DNA of 64,000 nt, from assembly GCA_965208835.1 (NCBI GenBank), contig OZ242358.1, forward strand, positions 1,792,001 through 1,856,000, in the 5' to 3' direction. The translations under genes were made by a program, and so were the position numbers. Position 1 is the stretch's first letter, and the number at the start of each line of letters is the position of its first letter. Shown here piece by piece: positions 4,650 through 43,532 of the stretch. The notes under the pieces were generated by a model. That model was not told the DNA's origin, searched no databases, and was given only the letters and a program-made list of their open reading frames with translations. Origin of the DNA: Candidatus Latescibacterota bacterium (GTDB lineage: Bacteria; Latescibacterota; UBA2968; GCA-2709665).

Positions 4650-4713
4650 TTGACAATTTTGCAGTCAATTGCAAAATTGTCTTGACTTTTTTGCAGTTTA
4701 GTGCAAATTTGTC
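4650..4713 (+). promoter_or_regulatory. Tandem palindromic operator/promoter of the AAA-DUF4143 gene
   Basis: GACAATTTTGCA-N6-TGCAAAATTGTC (perfect) followed by GACTTTTTTGCA-N6-TGCAAATTTGTC. Each overlaps a TTGAC(A/T) -35-like hexamer, and the second ends 2 nt before the ATG. Confidence 0.7.
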
Positions 4714-27370: not shown

Positions 27371-27573
27371 GGGTGAGACGTAAGACGGAAGAGGGCAGAG
27401 AACCACACCTAGCCCCACCACCTGGTGAGAGGGGAGCCGGGAGACGGGAGAGATTACCTGCCTTGTGAGGATTCTTCTCGTGCCGAAGGCAATGAGGAAA
27501 GACATACCGGGCAAGGATTTCTTCTCCCGTCTCACCTCTACCGTCTCCCCGCTTTTGGTCTACCCTCTACCCG
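27371..27573 (+). mobile_element. Heptamer-arm MITE/REP-like element, copy 1
   Basis: AGACG(G/T)(G/A)-type tandem arms in inverted orientation around a core GAGATT.CCTGCCTTG.GAGG...GTGCCGAAGGCAA...GGGCAAGGATTTC. Confidence 0.75.
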
Positions 27574-36346: not shown

Positions 36347-36868
36347 CTATTCCAGCGCCTTCCCGTTGTCCCCGGAATCTTCAGTGACGCTTGTGCCTCT
36401 TGTGGCCACTCCCCCGCTCTCATCGCGGCCTGCCACGGCCTCGATCGCCATCTTCCCCAGCCGCTGAATGTCTTCCGCGATCGTTTCGTCCTCCAGGTCC
36501 GCGGGGCCGCACCACCGGTATCCCTCCGCCTCTGAGGCCGCCACCTTGAGGCTGCCGCCCGTCACCCGCGCGAAATAGATCAGGTCGACATGCTGGTGAT
36601 CGTCCGAAATCTGTTCCAGGAGGATGCACTCGGGGCGGCTTAATACGTCCACCGTGCCCATGCGGTAGCGGGGCGACAGCAGGTCCACCTCAAGACCGCA
36701 CTCTTCACGGACCTCGCGGACGGCCGCGTCGCACGGCAGTTCGTCTTCGTCGATATGCCCGCCCGGCGGAAGCCACAGCCGGAGCCGTTTGTGAAACAGC
36801 AACAACGTCCGGCCATCCCGAACGACGAACGTGGTTGCGGTGAAATCCCGGGTCGTCATCGTTCCCAA
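36347..36868 (-). CDS. NUDIX hydrolase
   Basis: PGGHIDEDELPCDAAVREVREECG Nudix box. Confidence 0.9.
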   Translation of the reverse strand: MGTMTTRDFTATTFVVRDGRTLLLFHKRLRLWLPPGGHIDEDELPCDAAVREVREECGLEVDLLSPRYRMGTVDVLSRPECILLEQISDDHQHVDLIYFARVTGGSLKVAASEAEGYRWCGPADLEDETIAEDIQRLGKMAIEAVAGRDESGGVATRGTSVTEDSGDNGKALE

Positions 36869-36908
36869 TATACTCTGCGGTCAGGTTGGGAGCAAAGTCA
36901 AAAACGAC

Positions 36909-37110
36909 CAGGATTAAGCAGGATTAGATCAGGATTAAGCAGGATTAAGGCAAATGCGGGGACGGGGAAACCCACCGAGATCCTGCTCGTGATGTGAGTC
37001 AACTGGGAAAAGCCTGACAGTATCAGGAATCACTGGATTAAACAGAATTAAGGCAGAGGCGAGGACAGGGAAACCGTCCGAATTCTTCCTGCCGAAGTGA
37101 GTCAACGTGG
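36909..37110 (+). repeat. CAGGATTAA-type ~9-mer tandem plus ~80-bp local duplication
   Basis: Four CAGGATTA units. 36930-37006 is repeated imperfectly at 37033-37110, and both copies end in GTGAGTCAAC. Confidence 0.75.
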
Positions 37111-37206
37111 GCGACGGTTACGCTGACGACGCATCTCATGCCGGCTCCGGACTATGACCGCACTGTCCGTCATCCGCCTCGGCCAGTGAAGCAGCACATC
37201 CGCATC

Positions 37207-37228
37207 ACTCCCCCCTTGAGGGGGAGTC
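37207..37228. repeat. REP-like palindrome
   Basis: ACTCCCCCCTTGAGGGGGAGT hairpin. Confidence 0.55.
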
Positions 37229-37438
37229 GCAGAAGCCGAGCCGAACCCCTGCGGACACGCACTGGGTATGCCTGCGTTTAGCCGATCAAAGGGACCGGCG
37301 ACGGCTGATGCGGTGGAGGGAGTTCAAGGTCGAATTCTGTGACGCTTCAGGATCGGCTGTCATCCTGCCTATCCTGTTCATCCATGTAAGATTGGGTTTT
37401 GCCTGTGGAGGCGGTAGGGGGGTATCGTCGATCTCGGG

Positions 37439-37819
37439 TTACCAGATGGTCTGCGGATAGAACGTCCGGATTCTTGAATCGGATGTGACGATGGGGCAGG
37501 CGTTGAGGCTGGCGGTTGCGACGATGGTGCGATCGGCAGGATCGCGATGGTCCCAATCGAGTTCGAGGTTTCCGATCCATGTTCGGACGCATACCGGCAG
37601 GATTTCGACGCGGTCGACTTGCTCGAGTCTACTGGTGAATTCGCGAATGGGTGCCGGGATAACCAGTTGTTGTTTCTTCACTTTAATTCCGATTTCCCAT
37701 ATAGAGATTGCGCTCAGGGCAATCCTGTCGGCGTCAGTGATGGCCTGCGTTGCTGCCGTAGACAACCGATCACGATCCAGCGTCCAGATTACAAGGGCCG
37801 AAGTGTCCAGCAGCACCAT
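37439..37819 (-). CDS. vapC: VapC/PIN-domain toxin
   Basis: LLDTSALVIW, SAISIWEI, HRDPADR, VTSD. Coupled to the upstream antitoxin (TAATG). Confidence 0.92.
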   Translation of the reverse strand: MVLLDTSALVIWTLDRDRLSTAATQAITDADRIALSAISIWEIGIKVKKQQLVIPAPIREFTSRLEQVDRVEILPVCVRTWIGNLELDWDHRDPADRTIVATASLNACPIVTSDSRIRTFYPQTIW

Positions 37820-38049
37820 TACACGTCCGCCCATTCATCAGTGGTTGGCAGATTGATGTCTTCGTGATAGATCACGCCGCCCTGAATGTCGCCGAAAGCT
37901 TCTTCCACGGTCTTCTTGCGTGCAATAGGCAGAATGCGCAGCACCGGTCGACCGCGATCCGTGACGATCAGTTCTTCGCCGGAATCATCAAGTTCGCGAA
38001 AGATACGGAGCATTTGTGCTTTCAATTTGCTCTTTGAGATGGTTTGCAA
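37819..38049 (-). CDS. Phd/YefM family antitoxin
   Basis: ISKSKLKAQMLRIFR...GEELIVTDRGRPV. Confidence 0.9.
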   Translation of the reverse strand: MQTISKSKLKAQMLRIFRELDDSGEELIVTDRGRPVLRILPIARKKTVEEAFGDIQGGVIYHEDINLPTTDEWADV

Positions 38050-38072
38050 GGTTTCTCCTCAATTAAAGTTTA

Positions 38073-38096
38073 TGACTATGGTCATGACTATAGTCA
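38073..38096. promoter_or_regulatory. Antitoxin operator (tandem palindromes)
   Basis: TGACTATGGTCA-TGACTATAGTCA just upstream of the phd-like gene. Confidence 0.75.
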
Positions 38097-38284
38097 ATAT
38101 ACACAAATGCAAACATCCGGTCAACGAATTTTCTGACATGGATTGACTACAGAATACTTTCCTTGTTTGACTATGATTTACTGTGATTGGGACAATGGAG
38201 GGATAGAGGGGGCAGGATGTACCTGGAGTCCGGGCGGCGTTTCGTTTTCGGCCTTTGTCCTGCCTATCCTGTGCATCCATGTTT

Positions 38285-38545
38285 CGTACGTCTTTGCACA
38301 GGCCGATAGCCAGAACTTTGCGCAGACCCAACCGCCACCGGCGTCAGTGTCATCTGCATTTACTCGCGCAGCCGGATCTTGATTTCGTCAACAGAAGCCG
38401 TGTCCAGGAACAACGCCAATTCCTTCTTGAGGTTTTCCCTGGATTCGGCTGCGGTCTTTCCCTGGCTCGCGATGTCCAACTCTGGGCAGAGCGCGACGTA
38501 CCCATCGCCCACGCGCTCGATAACTGCCGTCAACTGCCTGCTCAT
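38285..38545 (-). pseudogene. hicB: Decayed hicB (premature TAA) with probable hicA N-terminal remnant
   Basis: QLTAVIER..GYVALCPELDIASQG. TAA at 38360 is followed in frame by ..TPVAVG. An overlapping LGLRKVL..CK reading is cut off by the 9-mer repeat. Confidence 0.7.
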
Positions 38546-38918
38546 CACCAACTCACGCAATCCCGACTCGATGAATTAACATGGATTCAACTGCATGAAG
38601 GAGAAGCATCCCGGCTTGCCAACGATTCGAGCGATTTCTGTATTATATATGATTATACGTGCGGTGGGTTCCCGGTTTTATCCTCTCGATCCTGTGTATT
38701 TTTTCTTGGTGGCCTTTCGCTACTAACAATGGCCTACATGGATGGACAGGATAAACAGGATTAGAACCTTGAAAATCGACTGCCCCAATCAAACCTATGC
38801 GACGGGAAAGCCAGTCAAAGCGGACCTTGAGCCCACTTAAACGTGGTCACTGAGCTTGCCTGCATTGCGTGTGCTGAGCCTGTCGAAGCAAGCTTGTCGA
38901 AATGTCGAAGTGTACGTG

Positions 38919-39148
38919 TTTCGGCACCCGTTCGACTCCCATGCACAGCCCTTCGCCGATCCCTTCGACAAGCTCAGGGAGCGGCTCCGGGCAAGGCTAA
39001 GGGCCTCAGTTTTGGAGACCACGGTATGGTTCACGTGCTACGGTGTCTCGGCCCCCACCATGTCTCGTGTCGTGCCCTGCCTGATTCCCCTGCTTGTCCC
39101 GCATTTGTGGTTTTCCGCCTTTATCCTGCCTATCCTGTGTATCCATGT
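38919..39148 (+). repeat. ~230-bp segment duplicated at 42766-43005
   Basis: TTTCGGCACCCGTTCGACT...REP...ATGGTTCA...CCTGATT...9-mer repeat is present in both copies. Confidence 0.82.
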
Positions 39149-39290
39149 TTATGGATCTATGAGTTGACATAAATGTGCGCGAACAGCCATAACGCGGCAG
39201 GAATGCGGCTGGCCAGCCGGCGATGTAGGTGGGGCTTTGATTCGGAGCGAAGAAGCGTTAAATTTGGCTAAAGATCCTGAGGAGATGAAT

Positions 39291-39581
39291 ATGCATATGA
39301 AAAATCCGCCGCATCCTGGACATTCGGTGCGTTACGATTGCCTGGAACCGCTTGGCTTGAGTGTCGCGGAAGCCGCACCAAAACTCGGTGTCGCCCGAAA
39401 ACACCTGTCTGATATCGTCAGCGGTCAGGCTGGCATCTCACCCGAGATGGCGATTCGCCTGGACAAGGCGTTCAGCGGCGGCGCGCAAACGTGGTACCGG
39501 ATGCAAGCCGCCTACGACCTCGCACAGGCCATGCAGAGGGCTGACGAGATACGCGTCGAGCGTCTTGTCATGCACGAGTGA
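39291..39581 (+). CDS. higA: HigA/VapI family antitoxin (orphan)
   Basis: [34 protein letters not shown]. No intact higB upstream. Confidence 0.9.
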
Positions 39582-39740
39582 ATTCTGACTGTACTGACGA
39601 ATGCTAGTCGTCCACCCTGACATTCCGCCCATCCCACCATTCCGCCTTCCTCAATTTGAGTCAGATCCGCACGTGGTTATACTGGCTCGCCAGTTTATTG
39701 GTTTTCCGCCTTTATCCTGCCTATCCTGTGCATCCATGTT

Positions 39741-40352
39741 TCATGCTTTGTTTTGCGGATTGTCGCCGGATTGTTCCCACGCTTTCGTGAACGTCTCCGG
39801 TTCGACGCCGAGCGCATCGGCCACGCGGTTGATATAGTTGAAAAAGCCGATGATCTGGACCGCGTCGTGGATGGCGCGGTCGTCGAAGCCGTACTCACGC
39901 AGCCCGTCGATGTCCGCGGCCGTTGAAGCACGCGGATCCAGACTGAGCCCCTCCGCGAAGGCGCACAGCGCGCGGTCGGCGGCCGGCAGGTCGGCCCGGC
40001 GCCAGTCCGCGGCCAACTGATGCACCAGCCAGTCGGCTTCCTCGCCGTCCTCGACGTCGAACTCTCCGGCGACCTCGGCACGGAGGTCGTGGGCGTGAGA
40101 GCGTATTCAGTACACGCAGTGGTTCGCGGCCGAGACCACCACGGCGAGCATCTCCCGCCGCGCGCGGCTGAGGGGCGAGGGGCCGTGCATCAACGTGCCG
40201 TAGAAATCCAGCGAAGCCTTCATCGCCGGCGGATTCGGGCTCATTACGGAGACGATGCCCCAGATCCTTCCGGCACGCTTCAGCGCCGCGTCATACAGCT
40301 TCTTCAACAGGCCAGTGGCCCTATCCGGAGGAATAACATCGATATACGGCAT
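39741..40352 (-). CDS. AhpD/CMD-family peroxidase-related selenoprotein (CxxU)
   Basis: ORF 40107..40352 ends NHCVY-TGA and continues in frame as IRSHAHDL...FNYINRVADALG. Hairpin CGACCTC-CGTGCC-GAGGTCG starts 17 nt after the UGA. Confidence 0.85.
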
Positions 40353-40736
40353 CGTAAGACCCCCATTCCGCCACAGTCAAATCAAAAGCAACTTACATGG
40401 ATGAACAGGATGAGCAGGATAAAACTGCAAGAAACCACGAAATCAACGGAAGCAGTGAAAGCCATAAGAGACATAAAACCCCAAATCAAATCCGCTAAAC
40501 ATTGATGGAAAGGATGTACAGGAGGAAACCGGCGGTACAGTCTGCCATCCATCTTGCCAGAGAGTGTCGTTCAGGATTGCGCTTCAGAAAAAACCCACGC
40601 TTAGCGGACGTGGGTGTCAATAATGCGTGAGCAGTTGCGTAATCTCAGAAACTGTCTACCACCGGATTCTTCGAATAGATGCGCCAATTCTCCTTGTTGT
40701 TCGTTCAATCTGTTCAGCGTCTAGGGGCAGTGATCA

Positions 40737-41345
40737 TTATAGTATTCGTAGAAAATCACGGACATTCCGGAACGTGTCATGATTTAGATCCCAATAGCCG
40801 TTCATCGCTGCGACGCCTACAGAGTAGTGGGGATCTGGTTTGGTTGTGAGATAGGCATGGACACGGGCCTTGTCGGTATTTTTAATTGATACGCTTGCCG
40901 AGTCTTCCACACAAGTAAAGAAGCCATCAATGCATTGATCCACTGAGGTATCTGCGAAGCTTTCACAGATCAATGTTTCAAGCATACCGCGACGATTTTC
41001 GTCGGGAAGTATCAGCACCGTCACTGCCGGGTTGGGGTTAGAAGGCTCTCCGGACTTCTGCGGGATAGGCAATTTGACCTTCTTTAATGACGAACGGACG
41101 CTCTGAAATGCGCTTTTTGCAGACATTTCTGCATCGCGTACGATGCCGATACTTTGAACGGCGTCAAAATCCGGCATTTTAACGAATGCAAGCAGAAATC
41201 CGCTGAGTTCGTTCACGCCTCCGAAATTTTGAATCTGAATATTCTCTATGGATAGGTGCTCTACGAATGCTCTAAAGAAATTCCTTTGGTCATTGCCTTC
41301 AACGAGAAGCTGAATATCTGACTCGATTTCCTCTGCTTTTGGCAT
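40737..41345 (-). CDS. DUF3226-like TOPRIM-fold protein
   Basis: LLVEGNDQ, FGG, IVRDAE, GMLETL, KARVHAYL. AT-rich. Confidence 0.75.
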   Translation of the reverse strand: MPKAEEIESDIQLLVEGNDQRNFFRAFVEHLSIENIQIQNFGGVNELSGFLLAFVKMPDFDAVQSIGIVRDAEMSAKSAFQSVRSSLKKVKLPIPQKSGEPSNPNPAVTVLILPDENRRGMLETLICESFADTSVDQCIDGFFTCVEDSASVSIKNTDKARVHAYLTTKPDPHYSVGVAAMNGYWDLNHDTFRNVRDFLRIL

Positions 41346-41347
41346 GC

Positions 41348-42391
41348 CTATCGGACCTCAAGATTGTGCCGGATTGCTCCGTCGATTGCATCAGGTTCAT
41401 AGGTGACACATCGACTCCCTTTGTCAGCGATTTCAAGTCTGTGTAAGCGAAATCTGTCCTTACTCAGAGAATCGTGCGCTGCCATCACGCACTCCATACT
41501 GTGTGTGGTTGCGAATAATTGGGTCCGAAACTGCCGAGCTGCTTCATCGATAACGCGCCAGACATCAGGCAGTACCGTGTGGTGTATGCCGTTTTCGAGT
41601 TCATCTACCATAACGACACCATCTGGTACGGAAGCGATACCTAATACAAGGCGTGCTATTTGGGTCATGCCTTCGCCCATTACGGATAGAGGCACCAGTT
41701 CAGACCACCCGATATCTCCCCAGATCATGGGCGACCCGCTGGAAGAATTATCCTCAATGCTTTGCAATCTGGGTTCGAAGACACGTAGTGCCTTTAGGAG
41801 CATATCTCCCTGCTTCTGTTGCCTCAACCGACCCAGTCTAACTGCATCTTCATGGATATTCCGATTGCGAGATAAGAGAATTATCGCCTGAAACGGAGGA
41901 TTTGTCGTAGGCTGGTTTACCTCAAAACCCTGTCCCTTCATACTTATCTGGCTCTTTACGGATTTACGGGAGGGGCCTGTATACTGAAACGCAAGAGAAC
42001 GTTCGTCAAGGAGGTTTGTAATTGAAGTGCCATTTGTACGGTCGAGAGGAATTTCAGTCGTGGGCTGTCGTTCTGAAGTAATCTTCAGAGTGAATTGTGC
42101 ACGCGATGATCTCTGCGCAATTATCTCAATTGATCGTCCCATGTCCAGATTGGAAAAAAGCTGTTTCCAAAACGGATCGGCGGTAGAAACCCCATGCGGG
42201 ACCAATCCTCGAATGACATTGTCATTCATTGCCAACTGGGTGTTGCCCGCTCCTGATAGCAGAAATACCGCTTCAAGCAAGCTTGTCTTTCCGGAGTTAT
42301 TTTTGCCGGCAATCAGGTTGATGCCACCCAAGTCGTCAATCTTCAGGGCATTAAACCCGCGGAAATTTCGTATCTGTAAGCGTTTCAACAT
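41348..42391 (-). CDS. ABC/AAA_15-AAA_21 ATPase
   Basis: IRNFRG, GKNNSGKT, MGEG signature, VDELENGIH, ATTHS. AT-rich, 2 nt from the next gene. Confidence 0.9.
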   Translation of the reverse strand: MLKRLQIRNFRGFNALKIDDLGGINLIAGKNNSGKTSLLEAVFLLSGAGNTQLAMNDNVIRGLVPHGVSTADPFWKQLFSNLDMGRSIEIIAQRSSRAQFTLKITSERQPTTEIPLDRTNGTSITNLLDERSLAFQYTGPSRKSVKSQISMKGQGFEVNQPTTNPPFQAIILLSRNRNIHEDAVRLGRLRQQKQGDMLLKALRVFEPRLQSIEDNSSSGSPMIWGDIGWSELVPLSVMGEGMTQIARLVLGIASVPDGVVMVDELENGIHHTVLPDVWRVIDEAARQFRTQLFATTHSMECVMAAHDSLSKDRFRLHRLEIADKGSRCVTYEPDAIDGAIRHNLEVR

Positions 42392-42556
42392 CGCTATCGC
42401 CCCTCAGTAGATCTTCGAATTGTGGCGAATATCATCGAGCGGATTCACCATCTATGTGGATGCGAGACTCAGGAATAATATCCAAAACCGATGCAAAGAT
42501 CAAATAGTTCCACGAAGTCATCGATCCTTCAGTAAACTTGGCGCATTGACCGGGGT

Positions 42557-42751
42557 TCAGTAAGCTTCCTCGCGCAGCCGTTGCTTGATTTCCGAATCCG
42601 AGGCCGTCTCCAGGAACAACTCCAATGCCTCCTTTAGATTCTCCCTTGCATCCGACACGGTTGTTCCCTGGCTGGCGACGTCCAGTTCAGGGCAGAGGGC
42701 GACGTAGCCGTCGTCCTCACGTTCTATAATTGCTGTCAGCTGTCTTGTTAT
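42557..42751 (-). pseudogene. hicB: Second hicB copy, decayed
   Basis: RQLTAIIEREDDGYVALCPELDVASQG. ATA at the expected ATG position and an early TGA after REEAY. Confidence 0.7.
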
Positions 42752-42765
42752 TGCAGGCTCACTTT

Positions 42766-43005
42766 TTTCGGCACCCGTTCGACTACCTTGCAAAGACCTT
42801 CGCCGACCCTTCGACCCTTCGACAGGCTCAGGGACCGCAGGCTCAGGGAGCGGCTCAGGACCGCAGGTTTAGAGGCCACAGAATGGTTCAAGTACTACAG
42901 TGGCTCGTCAACCGCGACGTCTCGAGTCGAGCTTTGCCTGATTTCCCCGCCTGTCCCGCCTTTTGGTTCTATGCTTTTATCCTGCTTATCCTGTTTATCC
43001 ATGTT
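42766..43005 (+). repeat. Second copy of the ~230-bp segment
   Basis: Aligns to 38919-39148. Confidence 0.82.
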
Positions 43006-43034
43006 CCCCGGCATCAATCCTCGATGGTCTCTCG

Positions 43035-43532
43035 CTACCACCCGCCAACCTGGGTCCTGTCCACGATATCCCGTGTCAGGATTTCGAACGCCGCGCCGAG
43101 GCCCTCCTGGCGTGCTTCTTCGCGCTGGCCGGCGGCACTGTAGATGCCGTATCCCTTCAGGCGCTTCTCTTCCCACAGCTGCTTCTTGTTCTTCACGTCG
43201 TAGCAACTGACGTCCACGAAGACCGAGATCTGGAACTGGTCCTCCTGTCCGCGGTACGTGAACGGGTCGTCCCGTACTTCCACGATGGTACCTCGCAGCA
43301 CGATGTCCGCGCGGTCTTCGTCCGTGACGCGCAGCGCCGCGTCCTGGAGAAACGCCTGGATCAGGCTGTCGGTGAGCGCCTGCTGGATTTCCGGCTCGAG
43401 GCTCTCGTTTTCCATCAGCGGAATGGCTACCGAGCGGATACCCGAGCCGCCGGTCGCTGACGTTGAATAGTACGCGCATCCGGCCAGCCAGAACAGGAAC
43501 AGCGCCGTGCAGGGGATGAGGGATCGCTTCAA
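43035..43532 (-). CDS. lptE: LptE family lipoprotein
   Basis: Lipobox LAGC-AYY, IRSVAIPLMENES, ADIVLRGTI, C-terminal GW. Confidence 0.78.
   Translation of the reverse strand: MKRSLIPCTALFLFWLAGCAYYSTSATGGSGIRSVAIPLMENESLEPEIQQALTDSLIQAFLQDAALRVTDEDRADIVLRGTIVEVRDDPFTYRGQEDQFQISVFVDVSCYDVKNKKQLWEEKRLKGYGIYSAAGQREEARQEGLGAAFEILTRDIVDRTQVGGW

Follow-up and report, generated by a model that had tools for sequence, protein, structure and literature searches.

Gene Content and Repeat Copies of the NUDIX-lptE Interval

The window, i.e., the whole 64-kb stretch of DNA analysed here, contains an interval between a NUDIX gene and lptE in which toxin-antitoxin (TA) and candidate defence genes are interspersed with copies of a short repeat. 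The features of this locus are listed below in window coordinates.

36347-36868, NUDIX gene
36909-36949, minus strand, degenerate arm-like array detected by TRF (4 x CAGGATTAAG, 10-bp period), 41 nt upstream of the NUDIX start
37362-37387, plus strand, motif copy 1, with its TGT end 52 nt from the vapC stop
37439-38049, minus strand, phd-vapC TA module (Pfam; PIN/VapC at 37439-37834, Phd at 37819-38049)
38257-38282, plus strand, motif copy 2 (1 mismatch), with its TGT end 78 nt from the hicB-like stop
38360-38560, minus strand, HicB-like antitoxin ORF of 66 aa, paralogue of the ORF at 42557-42793
38736-38761, minus strand, motif copy 3, which is paired as an arm with copy 5 in relatives and in metagenome variants
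38762-39122, no strand, mosaic non-coding filler between arms, with a palindromic CTGAGCCTGTCGAAG/CTTCGACAAGCTCAGG element
39123-39148, plus strand, motif copy 4, with the TGGTTTTCCGCCTTT extension
39237-39581, plus strand, orphan higA antitoxin gene between direct copies 4 and 5
39714-39739, plus strand, motif copy 5, with the extension and with its TGT end 2 nt from the AhpD-like stop
39741-40352, minus strand, AhpD/CMD-like selenoprotein candidate (in-frame TGA at 40107-40109)
40395-40420, minus strand, motif copy 6, 43 nt from the AhpD-like start
40499-40524 (genome 1832499-1832524), minus strand, degenerate motif copy with 3 mismatches
40737-42391, minus strand, AbiL-like/PDC-M38 candidate defence pair between arms 6 and 7 (AAA_21 ATPase at 41348-42391, DUF3226 at 40737-41345)
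42557-42793, minus strand, second HicB-like ORF, with weak Pfam matches
42979-43004, plus strand, motif copy 7, 31 nt past the lptE stop, boundary of the hotspot
43035-43532, lptE, named from the LptE Pfam match of its orthologues

The 26-bp motif, ATCCTG-N3-ATCCTG-N3-ATCCATGT, was searched for in the whole window with up to three mismatches; seven copies were found, all within 37362-43004, and none outside these limits (0.00 expected from 100 shuffles of the window). A looser pattern, ATCCTG-N3-ATCCTG-N3-ATCC, returned the identical seven copies versus 0.03 expected. Five copies lie on the plus strand (37362, 38257, 39123, 39714, and 42979) and two on the minus strand (38736 and 40395). The copies at 39123 and 39714 carry an exact TGGTTTTCCGCCTTT extension, and those at 38257, 40395, and 42979 a similar one.

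An earlier interpretation, made from the letters of this DNA only (the sequence-only reading), had described at least seven copies clustered between NUDIX and lptE and occurring nowhere else in the window, several of them with a common extension, and these counts bear it out. Its statement that, on the minus strand, copies follow the 3′ ends of lptE, the AhpD-like selenoprotein gene, hicB, and vapC is also correct (31, 2, 78, and 52 nt, respectively). From its list of modules, phd-vapC, higA, the AhpD-like gene, and the ATPase/DUF3226 pair were corroborated by Pfam, while the HicB-like ORF at 38360-38560 has no family match and is assigned purely by its likeness to the 42557-42793 copy. A hicA-like remnant said to be cut by a copy showed neither a family match nor a recognisable HicA frame. 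As had been stated, no integrase or transposase domain was found in the window (13 ORFs scanned).

Distribution and Structure of the Repeat

The repeat is not peculiar to this array, outside of which the sequence-only reading had seen no copy in the window. The present genome (G000, 5.18 Mb) has about 30 copies (24-32), 8 of 32 lying within ~6 kb of the NUDIX-lptE region. Each of the other 14 genomes in the genus contains 12-102 copies (0 for a reversed control pattern), and the motif is found in many phyla, with 58-212 copies per genome, mostly as inverted pairs, in the five genomes tested (58 in G041 and 183 in G042, for example). Its presence or absence is polymorphic at orthologous sites. 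In G042 and G044, gene-less (-)(+) pairs occur at fixed spacings of 126 and 180 bp and are internally ~80-95% alike. Solo arms and gene-less inverted pairs are scattered through many phyla in the manner of MITEs or REPs. Two further arrangements were observed, a 1.37-kb arm pair enclosing a methyltransferase in G042 and a 650-nt purine-rich array of CAGGAT units downstream of a gene.

With regard to target-site duplication, no consistent direct repeat was found around 86 pairs or 25 complete units, whose flanks are inverted rather than direct (TTAAC...GTTAA and TTAGCC...GGCTAA). Since the gene-less pairs of G042 are embedded in larger repeated units and the inverted repeat of several elements extends beyond ACATGG, the ends of the element are not sharply defined.

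Each arm is comprised of three 9-bp subrepeats, in which the hexamer CAGGAT is invariant, the 3-bp spacer is free, and the end is ACATGG. The 20 fixed positions of the motif are 97% conserved across phyla, and the spacers drift. Paired arms likewise agree at 97% of fixed positions, with 54% agreement at spacer positions versus 46% with shuffled partners, and 41 of 66 arm pairs have non-complementary spacer triplets. Inverted pairs are capable of folding (-44.6 kcal/mol, z = -6.3), and the folding of solo copies is no better than that of shuffles (z = -1.2 and +1.4). This conservation pattern suggests that the arm may be maintained for recognition rather than as a hairpin.

As the sequence-only reading had held, the repeat is neither a CRISPR array nor an attC site. 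The former was rejected on the irregular spacing of neighbouring window copies (479-2559 bp), their mixed orientations, and the genes in between, and the latter on the three direct 9-bp repeats and the poor folding of solo copies. An RNA-level signal (a terminator or processing hairpin, a 3′-UTR element, or a protein sponge bearing GGA motifs) was also considered. It would accord with the folding of inverted pairs, with the sense-oriented copies that often follow stop codons, and with the purine-rich array, but it is hard to reconcile with unfolded solo copies, with the non-complementary spacers, and with copies that adjoin gene 5′ ends as well as 3′ ends, and Rfam gave zero matches to the repeat even at E <= 0.1. 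In addition, CsrA (PF02599) was not found in 5/5 motif-rich genomes, with matches in control genomes, and a CsrB/RsmZ-type sponge RNA was rejected. The RNA-level explanation is therefore highly improbable.

Association with PDDEXK_3 Nuclease Genes

The motif forms the inverted-repeat arms of units of ~0.43-0.66 kb whose sole gene encodes a PDDEXK_3/GxxExxY nuclease. These units belong to a family of small palindromic elements that have the 26-bp repeat as an arm; a complete element has two inverted arms around a single PD-(D/E)XK gene, the ATG often lying inside an arm. Both relatives and members of other phyla have a nuclease of the GxxExxY type flanked by the same repeat, for which the sequence-only reading had suggested a search. 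G041, G043, and G010 have the PDDEXK_3 ORF enclosed by a (-) and a (+) arm, and the ATG of ACATGG serves as its start codon in G012 and G010. Direct rather than inverted copies flank the nuclease gene of G012 and G008. The protein from the G010 hotspot matches PF13366 at 144 bits and TIGR04256 at 145 bits, above the curated cut-off, and its translation shows GFLESVY for the GxxExxY helix and D...ELK for the D...ExK motif.

An MDxQDxQD start, which is the motif read in frame, is present in 89 of the best 120 homologues (64-96% identical) and xQDxQD in 8 more, in a sampling of homologues and loci that favours motif-bearing genes because both the homologue word seeds and the peptide pattern of the locus scan (MDRQDRQD) lie in the N-terminus. 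Flanking inverted repeats exceed the 95th percentile of 300 control genes, all from G000, at 13 of 16 PDDEXK_3 loci in five genomes, and the control maximum at 10 of them. Both flanks were available for 67 of 80 metagenome loci, 48 of which exceed the 95th percentile and 39 the maximum; both arms are of the CAGGAT type in 12. Arm families vary by nuclease lineage and are always short-period repeats. A nuclease at least 75% identical was detected in 4 of 18 motif-bearing relatives versus 0 of 23 motif-free ones, always in the hotspot, and G042 carries a multi-copy, internally deleted derivative in which the 3′ end of the gene is kept. No gene other than PDDEXK_3 was found consistently between matching arms, nor was an autonomous partner with a known transposase.

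No arm-bearing PDDEXK_3 member was found within the window or elsewhere in G000, where the top PDDEXK_3 match has 47% identity and no CAGGAT arms. Because the cognate nuclease is absent, the arms in this genome are orphans and nothing here can act in trans now, contrary to the system acting in trans that the sequence-only reading had envisaged. Similarly, no PDDEXK_3 at all was detected in G003 and G009 despite 16 and 28 motif copies, and none of the four full-length PDDEXK_3 genes of G042 has CAGGAT arms despite its 183 copies.

Variation of the Hotspot and Breakpoints at Repeat Copies

The NUDIX-lptE interval is a hypervariable defence/TA hotspot throughout the genus, with a length of 3.2-28 kb and 4-21 motif copies in each of the 13 genomes examined. 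Among the cargo found in relatives are type I RM, CBASS-like SMODS sets, SIR2, a ThiF/multiubiquitin set, and AbiL-like ATPases, as well as TA genes, IS elements, and group II introns; many further repeats and IS elements share the hotspot. The lptE-adjacent copy is present in 12 of the 13 intervals (the exception being G001), and a (-) copy is found at the NUDIX end in relatives. In six relatives, the AhpD-like gene lies between a (+) and a (-) copy whose TGT ends point at the gene.

Structural differences among relatives and metagenome populations break at the copies. Of 378 non-coding homology breakpoints, 73 are no more than 5 nt away from a copy versus 25.2 expected, a value reached by 0 of 2000 simulations, which overstate the significance because genomes of one genus are not independent; the ATCCTG edge accounts for 70 breakpoints and the TGT edge for 28. 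Metagenome contigs from four runs of four studies are also joined at copy edges, including 38761->39713 (three runs) and 39740->42582 (two runs), with further joints at 38765->39091 and 42760->42978. The higA module, bounded exactly by direct copies, is present in G000 and G006 and missing from G011 and from contigs of 3 runs, and the AAA_21/DUF3226 pair is missing from G006 and from the contigs joining 39740->42582. The filler at 38762-39122, ~78% alike to 42760-42978, is missing from some populations (joint 38765->39091). The copies mark points where TA/defence modules are swapped between relatives. The earlier claim that they delimit modules holds, and indel breakpoints coincide with them, the reverse of what had been named in advance as evidence against it.

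Plain homologous recombination, or alignments that end at any common repeat, would also yield such breakpoints. The repeat may be passive, i.e., an old and inert MITE- or REP-like motif that offers 26-45 bp of homology for RecA-type or illegitimate recombination, with PDDEXK_3 as a mere passenger. This explanation fits the many copies retained by G000, G003, G009, and G042 without a cognate nuclease, the other repeats and IS elements of the hotspot, and breakpoints at both repeat edges, which homologous exchange predicts. However, it leaves unexplained why the motif forms the first codons in most of the best homologues, why other PDDEXK_3 lineages have distinct short-period inverted arms, and why the fixed positions are so conserved while the spacers drift. 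It is accorded an appreciable but minor chance.

It was also proposed in the sequence-only reading that the modules are captured in an integron-like manner, each being a cassette that ends in the repeat and is moved by a site-specific recombinase encoded elsewhere. Within 60 nt of gene 3′ ends, the TGT end faces the gene in 27 cases and the ATCCTG end in 3 (from crude ORF calls that left out 57 of the 123 copies), direct copies bound the higA module, and the lptE-adjacent copy resembles an anchor site. On the other hand, the direct triple repeat is unlike the imperfect palindrome of attC with its R and L boxes, copies occur in both orientations and, at up to 212 per genome in unrelated phyla, mostly form gene-less inverted pairs, and the PD-(D/E)XK nuclease is the sole consistently linked gene. 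No tyrosine recombinase was found, and across the 13 intervals no Phage_integrase-type domain or recombinase except ordinary IS transposases was detected in the 13 window ORFs, 150 ORFs of six large intervals, and 8 ORFs of G009, the ORFs of five other small intervals and two junction-spanning ORFs lying outside the scan. Integron-like capture is thus improbable; the observation behind the proposal is confirmed and its interpretation partly supported.

Comparison with Known Systems

REPtrons are RAYT (Y1 HUH transposase-like) genes flanked by REP/BIME palindromic repeats, which they are thought to spread. Shared with them are a single small nuclease gene between inverted copies of a short repeat, gene-less dispersal of that repeat in tens to hundreds of copies per genome, enzyme lineages matched to repeat families (here PDDEXK_3 instead of RAYT), and orphan repeats that remain in genomes without the enzyme. 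However, the enzyme here has a PD-(D/E)XK fold (PF13366) rather than HUH/Y1, with Y1_Tnp (PF01797) not found in G000 or G041; the arms are tandem 9-bp direct subrepeats rather than a GC-rich stem-loop with a GTAG-type tetranucleotide; and one arm sequence is common to several phyla.

Terminal inverted repeats, gene-less pairs of uniform size (126/180-bp spacings in G042/G044), a deletion derivative retaining the 3′ end of the gene, and presence/absence polymorphism at orthologous sites recall IS elements and MITEs, from which the present elements differ in their lack of a DDE, HUH, serine, or tyrosine transposase and of any observed target-site duplication, in their blurred ends, and in their many solo arms. 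Integrons likewise carry arrays of promoter-poor small modules, including TA modules, with a repeat toward the 3′ end of the module gene and a fixed boundary at a core gene, but here no IntI was found in the scanned ORFs, the attC architecture (RYYYAAC...GTTRRRY) is absent, orientations are mixed, and the repeat is genome-wide and multi-phylum.

The pdif (XerC/D) modules are known from Acinetobacter plasmids, and dif consists of two 11-bp inverted half-sites around a 6-bp spacer. They resemble the present array in their ~26-28 bp sites, which bracket small TA/resistance modules in both orientations with no recombinase in cis, and differ from it in that the motif here is a direct triple repeat with a 9-bp period, without Xer half-sites, in a chromosomal hotspot and with a linked nuclease gene. 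Free-standing homing endonuclease genes include PD-(D/E)XK examples such as I-Ssp6803I. Like these, the present elements place a small selfish nuclease gene within a split palindromic site, have gene-less pairs that resemble empty target sites, and carry their gene between conserved genes (e.g., hsdR and hsdMS), whereas the putative empty sites here are multi-copy and dispersed, and only the arms offer homology for the repair of a putative cut.

Proposed Mechanism and Significance

Taken as a whole, the best explanation is that these are nuclease-linked palindromic elements whose arms steer the exchange of modules, with a probability of about 60%. The nuclease would bind the 9-bp-spaced hexamers of the arms and then cut there, and the break would be repaired against other arm-bearing DNA; alternatively, the arms of 26-45 bp may serve simply as portable homology. 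DNA between or beside the arms would thereby be gained, lost, or swapped, with junctions at arm edges and mostly at the ATCCTG edge. The present genome has either lost its cognate nuclease or never had one, and the arms of the window form an orphan array.

No publication on arm-associated exchange was found in the literature. In a bolder reading, which is less likely than not, GxxExxY/PDDEXK_3 genes together with inverted arms of 9-10-bp tandem subrepeats would constitute an unrecognised, phylum-spanning class of nuclease-only mobile elements of ~0.5 kb. In this reading, the orphan arms would be portable recombination sites for the capture and exchange of defence and TA modules, so that a PD-(D/E)XK nuclease, and not a recombinase, would drive a cassette system of an integron-like kind.

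Occurrence of the repeat in the window and in its genome

The 26-mer ATCCTGCCTATCCTGT(G/T)CATCCATGT, which consists of three 9-bp subrepeats with an ATCCTG edge at one end and TGT at the other (ACATGG on the CAGGAT strand), matches the 64-kb window seven times with up to 3 mismatches, five times on the plus strand and twice on the minus strand. All seven matches fall at 37362-43004, and the rest of the window has none, which bears out the clustering between the NUDIX gene and lptE noticed in the sequence-only reading. No match was obtained in 100 dinucleotide-preserving shuffles, and the core ATCCTG-N3-ATCCTG-N3-ATCC returns the identical seven sites versus 0.03 expected. The features of the interval are as follows.

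Features of the NUDIX-lptE interval (window coordinates)
Bounding the interval: NUDIX gene (domain match)
Within the interval: Phd-VapC (PIN) module (domain match)
Within the interval: HigA (TIGR02607)
36909-36949: degenerate array of 4 x CAGGATTAAG
38360-38560: HicB-like paralogue (no family match)
39741-40352, minus strand: CMD/AhpD-like gene with in-frame TGA readthrough (TGA at 40107-40109)
40499-40524: degenerate copy of the repeat, 3 mismatches
40737-42391, minus strand: DUF3226 and AAA_21 ATPase pair (PADLOC: AbiLi and PDC-M38A/B)
42557-42793: HicB-like ORF (weak Pfam matches)

Most gene assignments made from the sequence alone (NUDIX, Phd-VapC, HigA, AhpD-like, DUF3226 plus ATPase, HicB-like) hold, as does the statement that no integrase or transposase domain lies within the interval; a proposed hicA remnant was confirmed neither by the domain scan nor by ORF translation. 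An integron-like recombinase system had also been suggested, every defining part of which is missing. The TGA of the AhpD/CMD-like gene occupies the C-x-x-U position, the NCBIfam matches are peroxidase-related enzyme and AhpD-related (seleno)protein, and the gene thus probably encodes a selenoprotein. The AAA_21 and DUF3226 pair, whose presence varies among relatives, is a candidate two-gene defence system.

The window belongs to a 5.18-Mb single contig with 59.5% G+C. A profile built from the seven window copies finds approximately 30 sites in this genome at E < 0.01, and scanning for the 26-mer with as many as 3 substitutions allowed gives 32 sites, 8 of them within the ~6-kb interval. Copies therefore cluster in the interval, as had been proposed, though they are not private to it. 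Some copies are followed by a conserved stretch of ~35 nt that ends in GAGG. At 5083175-5083830 of the same contig, a purine-rich array of ~650 nt with a 133-bp period begins 28 nt past a 406-aa gene and carries about two dozen CAGGAT(T/A)A(A/G) units on a single strand; similar tandem arrays of motif copies occur in the hotspot of the relative G010.

Several other repeats were observed in the window. The stretch at 37204-37243, with CCCCCCTTGAGGGGGAG, is another very common short repeat, with depth rising more than 10-fold and numerous loose contig ends in all four metagenome runs. A palindromic CTGAGCCTGTCGAAG ... CTTCGACAAGCTCAGG element is found at 38850-38985 and 42790-42870, within inter-arm fillers; five further loci of the genome carry a 41-bp piece of it. 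At 4650-4713, the 32-bp unit TTGACAATTTTGCAGTCAAGTGCAAAATTGTC, itself partly palindromic, is present twice in tandem. An interspersed family with a 7-nt period (GAGACGG, CGTCTTA, GGGGAGA, CGTCTAC, and similar) occurs at 27427, 32956, 44200, 44248, 50354, 51358, and 54659, and a palindromic array of this sort, at 4911890-4912190 of the contig, lies directly upstream of the only PDDEXK_3 gene of the genome.

Distribution and anatomy of the repeat

With one genome per species, the exact pattern matches at least 128 stretches. Among the matches listed are Candidatus Latescibacterota (relatives of the window's genome), Dehalococcoidia, Terriglobia, Pyrinomonadaceae, Opitutales, Verrucomicrobia, Pirellulaceae, Gammaproteobacteria, Nitrospirae, Calditrichaeota, Gemmatimonadota, Armatimonadota, Hydrogenedentes, and others. 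Five such genomes contain 58, 98, 183, 196, and 212 copies (reversed control, 0). The majority of copies form (-)(+) inverted pairs with conserved interiors, frequently at a fixed spacing of 126 or 180 bp. The 26-mer and a weak T-A-A-T-T right after TGT are all that is conserved across 172 copies. Phage was rejected as a vector of the motif, the exact form being rare in a viral contig collection (12 stretches).

Within a pair, the two arms match at 97% of the 20 fixed positions and at 54% of the 6 spacer positions, versus 46% for shuffled partners, and 41 of 66 distinct pairs lack complementarity in both spacer triplets. Since the fixed positions agree while the spacers drift, selection acts to preserve hexamers at a 9-bp spacing, as would be expected for repeated protein-binding sites, rather than a perfect hairpin. 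A role at the RNA level is disfavoured, because solo copies do not fold, spacers are non-complementary, copies adjoin genes in both orientations, the region of the repeat has no Rfam match at gathering thresholds or at E <= 0.1, and CsrA was not found in five of five genomes, a result that also disposes of a CsrA-sponge idea.

The Bacteroidetes -7 box is TAnnTTTG, which CCATG-TAAGTTTG at the TGT end resembles. A promoter reading was rejected: this end adjoins the 3' ends of genes no less often than their 5' ends, and phd-vapC has, by sequence reading, a promoter-like site of its own (TTGACC-N17-TATATT).

The NUDIX-lptE interval as a genus-wide hotspot

Each of the other 14 genus genomes carries the motif (12-102 copies, up to 1 mismatch), versus only 3 of 26 genomes of the same order outside the genus; the reversed control pattern gave 0 copies in every genome. 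All 15 genomes of the genus yielded the NUDIX gene, and 14 of them lptE. In the 13 genomes with both on one contig, they are 3.2-28 kb apart and each interval contains 4-21 motif copies. The interval is a genus-wide hotspot.

The cargo was surveyed with Pfam in six large intervals (150 ORFs). It includes type I restriction-modification (RM) genes, CBASS-like sets of SMODS with patatin or with HORMA and AAA, SIR2, a ThiF/multiubiquitin set, AbiL-like ATPases, toxin-antitoxin parts, and PDDEXK_3 genes, as well as group II intron reverse transcriptases and IS21, IS4-like, IS3-like, and IS1595 transposases. No use of the arms by these transposases was seen. In G015, from a second genus of the family, 11 of 13 copies lie inside one 26-kb region with hsdR, PDDEXK_3, and hsdMS.

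The order hsdR - PDDEXK_3 - hsdMS, with copies of the motif separating the genes, was observed in G012, G015, and G008 (L021:10795-16703, L217:1793-8127, L022:1148-9302), and in G013 and G001 the arms that bracket PDDEXK_3 in hsdR-hsdMS loci enclose different DNA. The G001 hotspot also contains an apparently ORF-less group II intron (L018:3814-4545; Rfam RF02003 and RF00029), which starts exactly at the TGT end of a motif copy (CCATG|GTGCG), and two genes for group II intron reverse transcriptases lie in the G008 hotspot.

Structural breaks at copies

It had been suggested that gain or loss of modules would have its breakpoints at the repeat, and this is what comparison of the 13 intervals and of metagenome contigs from four runs revealed. 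In pairwise alignments of the intervals, homology ends at motif copies. In G011, the (-) copy equivalent to that at window 38736 is only 56 nt from the (+) copy equivalent to that at 39714; in G006 there is an additional higA module, delimited by a second (+) copy; and the window's genome has a 361-bp filler on top of the higA module. All pairs together gave 482 unique breakpoints, from which 104 within ORFs were removed. Of the 378 non-coding breakpoints left, 73 are within 5 nt of a copy versus 25.2 expected at random non-coding positions (reached in 0 of 2000 simulations), a figure that is indicative only because the events are not independent and alignments tend to extend to the end of a shared repeat. 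By edge, the counts are 70 for ATCCTG and 28 for TGT. Independently of the relatives, contigs of four metagenome runs from four studies contain the following joints.

Joints in metagenome contigs (window coordinates)
38761 to 39713: inner edge of copy 3 to first base of copy 5; three runs
39740 to 42582: just outside copy 5; two runs
38765 to 39091: one run
42760 to 42978: one run
38048 to 38737: one run

Elsewhere in the window's genome, the site at 1714024-1714343 is empty in G007, G003, and G008, holds a short pair with a spacer of 57 or 41 bp in G002 and G013, and has bigger inter-arm fills in other genomes. The copy at 3199024 is absent from G014 and G002, and G010 and G013 have insertions of 0.8-0.9 kb immediately inside its ATCCTG edge. 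Plain homologous exchange at an inert repeat accounts for such breakpoints; it leaves unexplained the link of the arms to a nuclease.

Association of the arms with PDDEXK_3 nucleases

A GxxExxY nuclease flanked by the repeat, which the sequence-only reading had named as something to look for, occurs in the relatives G010 and G012 and beyond them in G041 and G043. The sole PDDEXK_3 (GxxExxY; PF13366/TIGR04256) gene of G041 sits between a (-) and a (+) copy, as do one gene of G043 and the hotspot gene of G010. In G012 (MDAQDKQD...) and G010 (MDRQDRQD...), the ORF starts at the ATG of ACATGG. An MDxQDxQD N-terminus is present in 89 of the best 120 homologues of the G010 protein (64-96% identical) in a word-seeded search that may favour such N-termini; another 8 have xQDxQD and most others decayed versions. 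The family is very large (7852 of 8000 scored candidates match at E <= 1e-10). Read from its translation against the family name, the nuclease appears to keep the GxxExxY helix and the D...ExK motif, and no Protein Data Bank chain matches it by sequence.

For a flank test, 170 nt upstream of each gene were aligned to the reverse complement of 200 nt downstream, with 300 small genes of the window's genome as controls. Flanking inverted repeats exceeded the control 95th percentile in 13 of 16 PDDEXK_3 loci from five genomes, and the control maximum in 10. Both flanks were available for 67 of 80 metagenome loci; the corresponding numbers are 48 and 39. In every case an arm is built of 2-4 tandem repeats of ~9-10 bp, but the families differ: CAGGAT arms flank the closest homologues (5' arm at 14 loci, both arms at 12), and other families are CACAGAT, CGCAGAT, CACGGAT, CACGAAT, CACAAAA, CCACGAAGG, and GCGCAAAGA. 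The 25 complete units delimited are 426-660 bp long. In G042, an internally deleted derivative common to at least 8 of 10 loci examined retains the last ~40 codons of a PDDEXK_3 gene, flanked by CACAAAA-type arms.

In the order as a whole, a nuclease sharing at least 75% identity with the G010 protein was found only in G010, G008, G015, and G012 (split in the last), that is, in 4 of 18 motif-bearing versus 0 of 23 motif-free genomes, and always in the hotspot. The single PDDEXK_3 of the window's genome is 47% identical to the G010 protein and lacks such arms. Several genomes keep many arms without a nuclease gene, and within the genus the number of PDDEXK_3 genes (0-4) does not track that of motifs (12-102), which weakens, without overturning, the reading of this nuclease as partner of the repeat. 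With regard to other partners, a RAYT was rejected (no Y1_Tnp in the window's genome or G041), as was an autonomous transposon, since a methyltransferase, not a transposase, lies within a 1.37-kb (-)(+) pair in G042.

Proposed mechanism and implications

A nuclease with cognate end-repeats is the most economical reading. PDDEXK_3 and its arms would resemble RAYT and REP, an enzyme paired with its own interspersed repeat, and transposases and MITEs, an enzyme with cognate end-repeats. Arm-flanked DNA might move by transposition-like excision and insertion; alternatively, a homing-like cut in a gene-less pair might be repaired from a filled pair. By either route, inter-arm DNA would travel and junctions would fall at the inner (ATCCTG) edges, matching the observation. 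Element ends are fuzzy, and no target-site duplication was found at the ends of arm pairs or complete units.

The window array is a record of arm-based exchange, not an active system, and is filed here as orphan arms of a system in which a selfish nuclease goes with an interspersed repeat. That a new class of nuclease-only mobile element builds cassette arrays is considered rather unlikely, at roughly three chances in ten. No literature was found on the motif or on PDDEXK_3/GxxExxY with flanking repeats in a search that left most subscription journals and ISfinder/Dfam-type databases outside its reach, so an earlier description is possible. A survey of the family lists the function of PDDEXK_3 as 'Unknown' and mentions 'multiple transfers' (PMC3424549).

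Tying PDDEXK_3 to cognate short-period inverted repeats offers this uncharacterised family a specific and testable function, in which the protein would act as a selfish or domesticated nuclease served by an interspersed repeat of its own, in the manner of RAYT and REP. The nuclease-arm link is also expected to explain many low-complexity ORFs in MAG annotations (for example, MDxQDxQD and ILSILSIH-type peptides). For defence islands, it suggests a route by which strains, and perhaps phyla, may exchange hotspot cassettes via a shared 26-bp arm.
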